Assembly (NCBI GenBank): GCA_016776505.1
Contig: JADHTG010000031.1
Coordinates: forward strand, 1 to 32,000
DNA from: Bacteroidota bacterium
Lineage (GTDB): Bacteria; Bacteroidota; Bacteroidia; CAILMK01; JAAYUY01
DNA: 32,000 bases
Direction: 5' to 3'
A program made the position numbers and the translations under genes. The notes beneath the pieces were generated by a model, which did not search any database, was not told where the DNA came from, and saw nothing but the letters and a program-made list of their open reading frames with translations. Positions 12,245 through 15,615 of this stretch are shown here, piece by piece (the stretch's first letter is position 1; the number at the start of each line of letters is the position of its first letter).

Positions 12245-14215
12245 ATGACACGAACATTCAATCCGGTTCAGAATTATGAAGAAAGCAAAAAAGCCATTGG
12301 TTATGTGGACCGTAAAGAAGCCAAACAGACGGATTATGATCGGATTGGTTTCATGTCAGGTTTGGAAGTACATCAGCAGCTTTTAACCAAGCATAAGTTA
12401 TTTTGCCGTTGTCCTGCGGGACTTTACAACCAGAGTGAGGATTATGATGCAGAAATTGTACGCCACATGCGACCCACCTTAAGCGAACTGGGAGAATACG
12501 ATGGCACAGCCCTCATGGAATTTAAAACCAGGAAAAACATCATTTACAAGATTAAAAATGAAACGGCCTGTACCTATGAAGTGGATGATACACCCCCTTT
12601 TGCTGTTGATAAAGAAGCCCTGGAAAAAGCACTGGAGATTTCCATTTTAAGTAAGTTGAACATTGTTGGGGAGGTTCATATTACGAGGAAACAATATTTG
12701 GATGGAAGTATTCCAACAGGATTCCAAAGAACGGCCATTTTGGGAGTGGAAGGAGAGATTCAGTTAAGAAATAAAAAAGTAAGATTAATTCAGTTAAGCC
12801 TGGAAGAAGATTCATGTCGTGAAATATCTGACATTGGACACTGGAGAACCTATAAAACCGACCGCCTGGGCATGCCCTTGATAGAAACAGTTACTTATCC
12901 CGATTTTGCCAATCCCGATGAGGTGAAGGAAGGTGCTGATTATATTCGTTTTCTCAACAGGAGCACAGGCAAAGTCAGAACGGGTATTGGATCTACCAGG
13001 GCGGATGTGAACGTAAGCTGCGAAGGGGGCACACGTGTTGAAATTAAGGGCGTGGCTCATACCAATTGGATGCCAGAACTGACACATAATGAGGCTTTTC
13101 GACAGTATGCTTTATTGCATATCCGGAAATTGCTGAAAGAAAAAGTGGAGGATATTAATAGCTGGAAATTAACGAAAGTGGAATTGAAAGCTGAAGACTT
13201 CAAATACAGCTATGAGCCCCTCATTCAGGCAAAGAAAAATAACTTTAAAATTGTAGCAGTCAAACTTCCCCAATTCAAAGGTTTATTGTCTCATTTCACA
13301 CAACCTTCAAAGATTTTTGCAGATGAAATATCCGACAGGCTGAAAGTGATTGCCTGTATTGAGAAACCTAATATGATACATTCCGAAAAAATTGAAAAAG
13401 TAATTACCGAATCCAATTTCAATAAAATATGCACATTATTGGGCATTTCTCAAAATGATGCATGGATTGTTTTCTGGGGACCGGAGGAAGATATTCCGAC
13501 AGCCATAGAAACCATAGATGAAAGATGCAGAATGGCATTTGCCGGAGTTCCCAATGAGACCAGGAAATCATTTGCCAACGGAACCACCATTTTTGAAAGG
13601 GTATTGCCGGGTGCTGACCGTATGTACCCGGATACAGACTCAGAGCCTATTCCATTAAAAGATGAATTCATCGATCAGATCAGGAAAAAATTACCCATGG
13701 ATATCCATGAACGAATTGATCAATTGCAATCATGGGATGTCCCTCAGGATACATACACCTACTTGTTGAAAAGAAACCTGATCCCAATCATGGAAAAGAT
13801 CCATGAAAAGCTGGGAATTAGTCATCAATTTATCGGCACTTTCTTCGGACATAAGTTAAAATTCATTGAAAACAACTTCCTGTGTCCACAGGAGTTCAGC
13901 TATGAAAGATTGTATGATCTGTTTAAATACCTGCATGATAAAAAGCTGGATTTATCGATTGCCAAAAGCATGTTAATTGAGTATTATCAACATCCAAAAA
14001 TGGATTTTGATTCTGTTCTGACCGAGATAAACTATAAGCCCATAAGCAAAGATGATTTGGCAGATAAAATTCCCTTCCTGAAGGAGAAATTCAAACAAAT
14101 CAAGATTTCTGAAAAAGAAGAAGTCGATTCTCATTGGGTGATGGGCCAGGTTTCAAAATTAGCGAGGGGAAACATTCGTTTTGCTGAACTGAAACACTTA
14201 GTCGATTCTCAATAA
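12245..14215 (+). CDS. gatE: Glu-tRNA(Gln) amidotransferase subunit E (archaeal-type GatE)
   Basis: 656 aa from ATG 12245 (672 aa if TTG 12197 is used). It has GLEVHQQLLTKHKLFCRCP, RPTLSELGEYD, EVDDTPPF, GFQRTAILG, LEEDSCRE, DRLGMPLIETVT, RVEIKGV and GVPNETRKSFANGTTIFERVLPGADRMYPDTDSEPIPL, collinear with the GatE/GatB kinase-amidotransferase core. GatE-specific length and a YqeY-like tail (HWVMGQVSKLARGN) are also present. Confidence 0.85.
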   Translation: MTRTFNPVQNYEESKKAIGYVDRKEAKQTDYDRIGFMSGLEVHQQLLTKHKLFCRCPAGLYNQSEDYDAEIVRHMRPTLSELGEYDGTALMEFKTRKNIIYKIKNETACTYEVDDTPPFAVDKEALEKALEISILSKLNIVGEVHITRKQYLDGSIPTGFQRTAILGVEGEIQLRNKKVRLIQLSLEEDSCREISDIGHWRTYKTDRLGMPLIETVTYPDFANPDEVKEGADYIRFLNRSTGKVRTGIGSTRADVNVSCEGGTRVEIKGVAHTNWMPELTHNEAFRQYALLHIRKLLKEKVEDINSWKLTKVELKAEDFKYSYEPLIQAKKNNFKIVAVKLPQFKGLLSHFTQPSKIFADEISDRLKVIACIEKPNMIHSEKIEKVITESNFNKICTLLGISQNDAWIVFWGPEEDIPTAIETIDERCRMAFAGVPNETRKSFANGTTIFERVLPGADRMYPDTDSEPIPLKDEFIDQIRKKLPMDIHERIDQLQSWDVPQDTYTYLLKRNLIPIMEKIHEKLGISHQFIGTFFGHKLKFIENNFLCPQEFSYERLYDLFKYLHDKKLDLSIAKSMLIEYYQHPKMDFDSVLTEINYKPISKDDLADKIPFLKEKFKQIKISEKEEVDSHWVMGQVSKLARGNIRFAELKHLVDSQ

Positions 14216-14229
14216 ATTAGTTGATCATA

Positions 14230-15615
14230 ATGAACGAAGATATTTTTCAAGGATATAAAGGCAAGGCACTGGCCACATTAAAAAAATATGGCGCGCGCGT
14301 ATGGGCTCAGGTTGAAGCTGAAACAAGCAGGGGGAAATTCGAAGGCACCATACTTCCCAGGGCAGAAAATACTGACGATGAACACATTGTCCTGAAAATT
14401 ATAACAGGATATAATGTGGGTTTGGATATTAATACAATCACAAACATCAGGGAAACCGGTTATAAAAAAGCGAATTATCAAATTCCTGAAAAAGCATTTC
14501 CCGTTACAAAAGGATTGCCTCATGTTAAGCTTTTTGGAACAGGAGGAACTATAGCTTCCCGTTTGGACTATAGAACAGGAGCAGTAATTCCTGCCTTTTC
14601 CCCCGGAGAACTTTATGGAGCTGTGCCTGAACTGGCTGAAATTTGCAACCTGGATACTGAAAAGGTATTTGCCGTGTTCAGCGAAAACATGGGCCCAAAA
14701 CAATATATTTCCCTGGCTCACGCCATTAAGAAGGAAATTGAAAAAGGGATTGATGGAATTGTAATTGGTCATGGTACTGATACTTTGCAGCATACCGCGG
14801 CTGCCCTATCTTATATGATCATAAATCCTCCCATACCCATTGTTTTGGTGGGCTCCCAACGGTCTTCTGATCGTCCCAGCTCTGATGCTGCATTGAATTT
14901 AATGCATGCCATGTACACCGCAGGCAATTCTGATATTGCCGAAGTAATGGTTTGCATGTTTGGTCCTACCTCTGACGAATATGCATTATTGCACAGGGGA
15001 ACTCGCGTCCGTAAAATGCATTCCAGTTATCGTTCCACTTTCAGGACTATTGGAGACATTCCTGTAGCAAGTGTTACACGCAAGGGAGTGATCCCAATGA
15101 AAAAGGAATACAATCACAGACGAAAAGAAATGGAAGTGGAAATCAAGCCCTTTTTCAGTGATAAAGTGACCATGTTGTATTATTATACCGGTATGAAACC
15201 CGATATCATGCATTCCATGATAGATCAGGGTTACAAAGGAATTGTCATTATTGGAACAGGATTGGGTCATGTAAATACAGAACTTTATCCTGCCCTGGAA
15301 AGAGCTCAAAAGGAAGGCGTTAATGTTTTTATGACTGTTCAGACTATCTGGGGCTATGTGCATATGTTTGTGTATGATACAGGCCGTGATATGATGGCCA
15401 AAGGCGTTGTTCCACTAGCCAATATGCTTCCTGAAACGGCCTATATTAAATTGGGATGGACACTGGGTCAGACCGAAAATCCTGAAAAAGTCAAGGAAAT
15501 CATGCTCACACCCATGAATTCTGATATCACAGAAAGAGAGCCATACAATGGTTATTTAGTTTACCAGGGTGGTGTGCCTGAAGTGGAAGAATTTATAAGG
15601 AAAGTGCATAAGTAA
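14230..15615 (+). CDS. gatD: Glu-tRNA(Gln) amidotransferase subunit D (archaeal-type GatD, asparaginase-like glutaminase)
   Basis: 461 aa from ATG 14230. The N-terminal GatD-specific domain (GKFEGTILPRAENTDDEHIVLKIITGYNVG) is followed by a type-I asparaginase domain with FGTGGTIAS and GHGTDTLQHTAAAL. It starts 14 nt after the gatE stop. Confidence 0.85.
   Translation: MNEDIFQGYKGKALATLKKYGARVWAQVEAETSRGKFEGTILPRAENTDDEHIVLKIITGYNVGLDINTITNIRETGYKKANYQIPEKAFPVTKGLPHVKLFGTGGTIASRLDYRTGAVIPAFSPGELYGAVPELAEICNLDTEKVFAVFSENMGPKQYISLAHAIKKEIEKGIDGIVIGHGTDTLQHTAAALSYMIINPPIPIVLVGSQRSSDRPSSDAALNLMHAMYTAGNSDIAEVMVCMFGPTSDEYALLHRGTRVRKMHSSYRSTFRTIGDIPVASVTRKGVIPMKKEYNHRRKEMEVEIKPFFSDKVTMLYYYTGMKPDIMHSMIDQGYKGIVIIGTGLGHVNTELYPALERAQKEGVNVFMTVQTIWGYVHMFVYDTGRDMMAKGVVPLANMLPETAYIKLGWTLGQTENPEKVKEIMLTPMNSDITEREPYNGYLVYQGGVPEVEEFIRKVHK

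Follow-up and report, generated by a model that had tools for sequence, protein, structure and literature searches.

The window analysed here is a stretch of 32,000 nucleotides from a Bacteroidota bacterium (assembly GCA_016776505.1, contig JADHTG010000031.1, positions 1 to 32,000). On its plus strand it carries two adjacent genes, gatE and gatD, whose products on sequence grounds probably make up a working GatDE, the type of tRNA-dependent amidotransferase that has so far been studied only in archaea. The first gene, gatE, runs from an ATG at 12245 to a TAA ending at 14215 and specifies 656 amino acids; it is followed, after a spacer of 14 nt (14216-14229), by gatD, which runs from an ATG at 14230 to a TAA ending at 15615 and specifies 461 amino acids. 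An earlier note on this DNA had described an adjacent, full-length gatE/gatD pair with a 14-nt gap; the coordinates proved exact, and both products score above the NCBIfam cut-offs for GatE and GatD, with matches that run along the whole of each protein.

A candidate Bacteroidota -7 promoter box, TAGGTTTG, lies on the plus strand at 12192-12199, 46 nt 5' of the gatE ATG, and fits the consensus TAnnTTTG. The open reading frame (ORF) of gatE itself opens with a TTG at 12197; since this TTG overlaps the candidate box, the ATG at 12245 is favoured as the true start, and the same length of 656 residues is given for GatE in public-assembly gene models. The placement of the motif supports the earlier description of a Bacteroidota-style box upstream: TAnnTTTG is found 8-60 nt 5' of 12 of the 30 ORF starts in the window, against 1.3 expected from random placement, while across the whole window it is not enriched (44 found, 38.9 expected). 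A sigma-70 promoter scan of the window was uninformative for a Bacteroidota genome. Downstream, a hairpin (CCCCTGACAGGG-TTCTGAA-CCCTGTCAGGGG, 15621-15651, plus strand) with a stem of 14-15 bp starts 6 nt past the gatD stop codon. It had been described as a strong terminator; the hairpin is strong but the T-run that follows is weak (AGCTATTTTA), and the hairpin forms on either strand. It is likely to be either a transcription terminator or an RNA-stabilising element.

The assignment of GatE was examined with curated profile models. The protein scores 473.8 bits against NF003107, a small margin over the cut-off of 456, and 414.2 bits against TIGR00134 (cut-off 319.55), where the match covers model positions 2-620 of 630. 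It falls far below the cut-offs of the GatB equivalogs, of which the best is NF004012 (124 against 338), followed by TIGR00133 (118.8 against 314.8). The Pfam GatB_N model, of 277 positions, is spread over GatE residues 38-476, and therefore a large insertion must lie inside the match. The AspRS-like insertion is indeed present, and the region aligns throughout to 2d6f_C and 1zq1_C, chains of the archaeal GatDE complexes that are also the best solved-structure matches of the whole protein. The domains are an N-terminal extension (residues 1-29), a cradle or catalytic core (30-300 and 433-480), the AspRS-like insertion (about 301-432) and the helical and tail domains (481-656, window 13685-14212). 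An AlphaFold2 model built with 35 homologues has a pLDDT of 84.9 and a pTM of 0.81. When this model was searched with Foldseek, GatE chains came first (E 2e-41, target TM-score 0.80) and GatB next, with weak matches to AspRS and to the GlnRS N-domain which fit the insertion and tail domains. The GatB-like core and GatE-specific insertion that the earlier note had read from the letters are therefore both borne out.

In the GatE of Methanothermobacter thermautotrophicus the Mg2+ ligands are His15, Glu157 and Glu184, and mutation of any of them abolishes both kinase and transamidase activity (PMC2330236). Their counterparts by alignment in the window protein are His43, Glu187 and Glu214. No substitution is seen in these columns among 52 bacterial and 81 archaeal-group GatE sequences, apart from a single alignment gap per group in the His column. 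Of the 71 columns with 95% conservation or more in the archaeal group, 65 are also retained by the window protein. The bacterial clade does differ consistently from the archaeal group in its N-terminal extension and in eight signature columns, some of which lie in the cradle domain.

GatD in turn scores 499.8 bits against NF003217 (cut-off 310) and 496.8 against TIGR02153 (cut-off 324). The Pfam domain GatD_N (PF18195) scores 42.9 bits against a cut-off of 25.7, and the Asparaginase and Asparaginase_C domains are also found. The GatD-specific N-domain occupies residues 28-74 and the type I asparaginase fold residues 99-425, with GTGGTIAS at 103-110 and HGTDT at 181-185, so that the proposed combination of a GatD N-domain with an asparaginase-type glutaminase carrying these two motifs is upheld. 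Asparaginase-type catalysis in GatD uses a threonine nucleophile and a Thr-Lys-Asp triad (PMC2330236). Thr107 (in GTGGTIAS), Thr183 and Asp184 (in HGTDT) and Lys262 (in VRKMH) are invariant in 86 GatD sequences, both archaeal structures included; all of the catalytic residues checked by alignment in GatE and GatD are kept. The best solved relatives are again the archaeal GatDE structures, 2D6F and 1ZQ1; the GatD of Pyrococcus abyssi is 47.5% identical to the window protein, within an archaeal range of 43-48%. A type I L-asparaginase (AnsA) has the same catalytic residues, and GatD residues 97-434 match asnASE_I at 368 bits (cut-off 260.5). Unlike AnsA, however, the window protein has GatD_N and scores higher on the GatD equivalogs, and the gene that encodes it usually lies directly 3' of gatE on the same strand.

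The pair therefore resembles the archaeal GatDE enzymes (2D6F from M. thermautotrophicus, solved with tRNA-Gln, and 1ZQ1 from P. abyssi) in its predicted two-subunit make-up, in the order of its domains (N-domain and asparaginase fold in GatD; cradle, AspRS-like insertion, and predicted helical and tail domains in GatE), in its Mg ligands and in its Thr/Thr-Asp-Lys catalytic set. It differs from them in that the host is bacterial, GatE is only about 31% identical, the tail is strongly diverged in the Bacteroidota subclade, and the presumed tRNA substrate begins with a different base pair, a point taken up below. The amidotransferase expected in a bacterium is GatCAB. Its GatB subunit and GatE are paralogues that share the cradle fold and the chemistry, and GatB too belongs to the type with a YqeY-like tail, but GatB lacks the AspRS-like insertion, and its glutaminase partner is the amidase GatA (with GatC) rather than an asparaginase homologue.

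Peptides from the window GatD were scanned against one genome per GTDB species, and relatives were found in at least 570 species-representative bacterial genomes. The best 80 of these are 76-85% identical, nearly all from metagenome-assembled genomes (MAGs) labelled Bacteroidales or Lentimicrobiaceae, and the median identity of GatD is 77.5% across hundreds of species. In comparisons with the nearest relatives, change at synonymous sites has reached saturation (pS 0.77-0.87) whereas pN is 0.10-0.23, and hence purifying selection is strong. For GatE, the best 120 relatives are 64-100% identical; all those with a taxon label are bacterial, nearly all of them Bacteroidota. Some of these 120 lie on contigs of 1.3-4.1 Mb, and their proteins are already named GatE by NCBI and JGI. 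A search of 50%-identity cluster representatives gave 599 clusters at E <1e-30. Labels among the GatE and GatD homologues include Bacteroidota, Ignavibacteria, Calditrichia, KSB1, Latescibacteria, Krumholzibacteria, Aminicenantes and Desulfobacterota-type MAGs; a GatD profile search gave Ignavibacteria, Kapabacteria, Chlorobiota, KSB1, Acidobacteriota and Bacteroidota.

The arrangement of the pair recurs. In 72 of 80 Bacteroidota loci gatE is 5' of gatD on the same strand and in most the two are adjacent, with spacers mostly of -4 to +60 nt and 10 outliers (more than 150 nt, or a long overlap). The same order is seen in six loci from other lineages, of which four carry a label (Bacteroidota, Aminicenantes, Calditrichia and Desulfaltia); the longer of these loci sit amid bacterial core genes (dnaA, secA, recO, ftsX, lptD). 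Bacterial contigs that carry homologues reach lengths of 4.09 Mb (JAXHMP010000001.1, assembly GCA_034521425.1) and 5.98 Mb (ERZ25042269:ctg13255c), and OY787449.1 and OY762280.1 are further GatDE-bearing genomes that are complete or nearly so. As for the remaining eight Bacteroidota loci, at least six have gatD without gatE in the fetched stretch and two end too near gatD. Intact gatD genes (76-79% identical) stand without gatE in L005, L036 and L050, where 10 kb upstream is covered, and in L047, L048 and L058, where 2-3 kb is covered; gatD and gatE appear to be unlinked in some genomes.

In five loci a same-strand ORF of about 200 amino acids of the YdeI/OmdA type (PF13376, the domain being confirmed in four) lies between gatE and gatD: L008 9358-9966, L014 7532-8140, L015 3922-4518, L021 9399-10001 and L023 9402-9983. 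In L042 a 433-residue ORF (8644-9945) occupies this position. The GatE match of L049 (7753-9950) falls in two overlapping pieces (query 1-489 and 448-656), for which a frameshift, a pseudogene or an assembly error is possible. Three loci, L041, L048 and L074, have a GatD about 77% identical to that of the window and yet are labelled Acidobacteriota, Clostridia and Chlorobiota; these are probably binning or label errors, recent transfer being possible.

The most likely role of GatDE here is that of a Glu-tRNA(Gln) amidotransferase in the indirect pathway of glutamine charging. By analogy with the solved archaeal enzymes, a GatD dimer would bind two GatE subunits. GatE would bind Glu-tRNA(Gln) and phosphorylate its gamma-carboxyl group with ATP and with Mg2+ bound at His43, Glu187 and Glu214; GatD would free ammonia from Gln or Asn with Thr107 as the nucleophile and Thr183-Asp184-Lys262 as the triad; and GatE would amidate the activated intermediate to give Gln-tRNA(Gln). 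Such a pathway would require a GluRS that also charges tRNA(Gln), and GatDE might or might not be the sole route to Gln-tRNA(Gln) in this host.

Three observations weigh against this role. In a survey of cultured Bacteroidetes, 12 of 14 had GlnRS and lacked GatCAB (PMC3927822). Bacterial tRNA(Gln) begins with U1-A72, whereas archaeal GatDE reads A1-U72 (PMC2330236). Finally, in the Bacteroidota subclade of GatE the helical and tail domains share only 13-15% identity with the corresponding domains of other bacterial GatE, compared with 48-50% within the subclade. The Pfam GatB_Yqey model scores 21.9 bits on the window tail, below its cut-off of 27, the tail is 13% identical to other bacterial GatE tails, and a phmmer alignment to 2d6f_C ends at residue 569. 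In archaeal GatE the C-terminal YqeY-like tail binds the D-loop of the tRNA. Given the divergence and the weak GatB_Yqey score, recognition of the tRNA or substrate may have shifted in the Bacteroidota subclade. Residues 481-656 are nevertheless predicted with confidence to form a helical domain in the AlphaFold2 model, and the NCBIfam model reaches residue 653. Among GatE matches elsewhere, GatB_Yqey is pre-computed for most of those from outside the Bacteroidota and rarely for Bacteroidota ones.

The first of these observations leads to the alternative that survives best, though it is clearly less probable than the role just proposed: GatDE is functional but coexists with GlnRS, as a second or conditional route or as a corrector of Glu-tRNA(Gln) made by a relaxed GluRS, and is non-essential. 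If the window genome followed the cultured Bacteroidetes, GatDE might be redundant here; the lineage that bears it either departs from their GlnRS pattern or keeps both routes. Coexistence has precedents, in that several bacteria, including Ignavibacterium album, keep GlnRS together with an amidotransferase, and GatD relatives are common among MAGs labelled Ignavibacteria. On the other hand, the strong conservation over hundreds of species, with pN so far below a saturated pS, would be expected of an essential gene rather than of a dispensable one.

The tRNA itself also bears on this alternative. In L042, a GatDE-bearing Bacteroidales MAG, a tRNA-Gln(CUG) gene (17864-17937, minus strand), the only tRNA-Gln located in a genome with GatDE, has U1-A72, A73 and C3-G70. 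The identity set of E. coli GlnRS includes G73 and G3-C70, and so this one tRNA does not carry the elements which that enzyme reads. The A73 and C3-G70 of L042 might reflect use of the indirect pathway; as a single case it is a lead. No glnS, gatB or amidase gene was found in 86 loci (searched by tblastn with E. coli GlnRS, with a GatE probe and with an amidase-signature regular expression), a sample far too small to establish absence since only about 1.3 matches would be expected if all three genes were present in each genome. Nor was GlnRS found in the window by tblastn with the E. coli protein.

The divergence of the tail leads instead to an unlikely alternative, namely that GatDE has been recruited to another substrate. 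This could be Asp-tRNA(Asn), the enzyme then being a dual amidotransferase that replaces GatCAB, or some other tRNA-linked or free carboxylate. The eight columns in which bacterial and archaeal GatE consistently differ, cradle positions included, would fit such a change as well as the diverged helical and tail domains do. However, all of the catalytic residues and most of the conserved cradle residues are kept, and the tail is still confidently predicted to be helical. The AspRS-like insertion is kept too, and modelling suggests that this insertion bars archaeal GatDE from working with AspRS (PMC2330236). Further, no new partner gene is conserved beside gatED. A Glu-tRNA(Gln) amidotransferase therefore remains the better reading of the pair.

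The operon is native to a Bacteroidota lineage. The genes that flank it are bacterial, as the earlier note had stated: they encode Lgt, MlaE, RibH, PhoH and a cargo peptidase with a Por_Secre_tail domain, the mark of the type IX secretion system (T9SS). An identical GatE occurs on 12 contigs, and its neighbours match in the six placements shown, which come from six different samples in ENA and Logan, so the gatED junctions are not an assembly artefact. In GC content, GC at third codon positions (GC3) and codon usage, gatE and gatD lie within the range of the other 26 window ORFs. Their tetranucleotide profile correlates with the rest of the window at 0.913, slightly under the 0.93-0.98 of other chunks.

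Trees were built by neighbour-joining with Kimura correction. The GatE tree, of 133 sequences and 613 columns, splits into groups of 52 and 81 with a bootstrap of 100/100. The group of 52 holds the window GatE and every bacterially labelled sequence, with no archaeal member or marker within it; its labels are Deltaproteobacteria, CSSED10-310, Calditrichia, KSB1, Krumholzibacteria, Latescibacteria, Aminicenantes, Desulfaltia and 'Clostridiales'. The group of 81 holds both crystallised archaeal GatE proteins together with sequences labelled Heimdallarchaeota and Thorarchaeota. A Bacteroidota subclade is recovered with a bootstrap of 89/100. Compared with other bacterial GatE the window protein shows 41% identity, and compared with the archaeal group 31%. 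The earlier note had proposed an inter-domain transfer domesticated in this genome. This is not supported in that form: the operon belongs to an old bacterial clade of many phyla, found in the species-representative genomes described above, and its composition is not foreign. A recent archaeal transfer, or an assembly or binning artefact joining archaeal DNA to a bacterial contig, is thus refuted by that clade, by the shared junctions, by the megabase bacterial contigs that carry homologues and by a native -7 box and window-typical codon use, even though the family was defined in archaea, its curated models are named 'arch' and the tetranucleotide correlation is slightly low.

Any exchange of gatDE between archaea and bacteria, in either direction, would have to be ancient, judging from the deep bacteria-only clade, the 41% against 31% identity and the non-foreign composition. 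In the neighbour-joining tree, a Heimdallarchaeota GatE lies closer to the bacterial clade than any other archaeal sequence does. Consistent with this, the cradle motif RKQYLDGSIPTGFQRT (window 12686-12733, plus strand, GatE residues 148-163), a consensus of the bacterial clade, is unchanged in Heimdallarchaeota GatE (for example TET29438.1, P0393). These Asgard proteins nevertheless fall outside the bacterial clade (100/100), and P0159 is about 39% identical to the window GatE. Tyr151 and Pro157 of the motif are also found in GatB (RKNYFYPDLPKGYQIS), whereas positions 151, 156 and 157 are occupied by Val, Asn and Thr in most other archaeal GatE proteins. Since GatB has the same tyrosine and proline, the states shared by Heimdallarchaeota and bacteria may be ancestral. 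A tree rooted with GatB (175 columns, with three partial GatB sequences that PDB alignments supplied) recovered a monophyletic bacterial clade in 29 of 40 replicates and monophyletic archaea in 9 of 40, and so favours neither direction of exchange.

Open-access reviews from 2008 to 2022 call GatDE archaea-only (PMC2330236, PMC2811023, PMC8007984, PMC8762117, PMC9499178), in agreement with the earlier note, which had called it an archaeal signature. The bacterial host context and the clade labelled with many bacterial phyla contradict this. A full-text search of the open-access literature found no paper describing bacterial GatDE; annotation pipelines already name bacterial GatE and GatD, and so the sequences themselves are not new. 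The clade is thus broad but not, as far as that search goes, already characterised, and its existence, breadth and depth seem to be unrecognised in the literature. As an event in the window genome the finding is more ordinary than first thought; as a general pattern it is more interesting.

It is tentatively proposed, with rather less than even confidence, that this deep clade, spanning the FCB group (Fibrobacterota-Chlorobiota-Bacteroidota), Acidobacteriota/Aminicenantes and Desulfobacterota-type lineages, relies chiefly or exclusively on GatDE to make Gln-tRNA(Gln). If so, GatDE of the Bacteroidota would pair with a non-discriminating GluRS and a co-adapted tRNA(Gln) (U1-A72, A73), as a bacterial counterpart of the archaeal transamidosome. 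The affinity to Heimdallarchaeota and the motif states shared with GatB would then point either to an exchange of great age between bacteria and Asgard-related archaea or to a GatDE that predates the split of the domains. GatDE is a standard example of an archaea-only protein, and a large, old bacterial clade alters the data behind such arguments. The clade also offers a natural experiment in tRNA recognition, the same enzyme meeting U1-A72 in bacteria and A1-U72 in archaea. A further suggestion is that the charging of tRNA(Gln) in some Bacteroidota, and in uncultured phyla related to them, differs from that in their cultured relatives. This has consequences for metabolic reconstruction from MAGs and for metagenomic work that takes gatD and gatE as markers of archaea.

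No flanking gene of the window recurs beside gatED in the 80 related loci, and the loci from other phyla show no recurring translation-related neighbour. On the former ground a divergent QueE-like radical-SAM gene (11135-12037, minus strand; best NCBIfam score 66.5 against a cut-off of 206) was rejected as part of the system. This gene is preceded by a second TAnnTTTG box, at 12070-12077 on the minus strand. The 12 sites of this motif at ORF starts, including those at 2660, 5989, 12192, 15726, 24188 and 30929, make a usable promoter map for the contig. Further upstream, a small cluster on the minus strand (7297-9075) encodes a 2x[4Fe-4S] ferredoxin, a partial match to CdhD (the delta subunit of CO dehydrogenase/acetyl-CoA synthase) and an ArsR/HTH_5 regulator.

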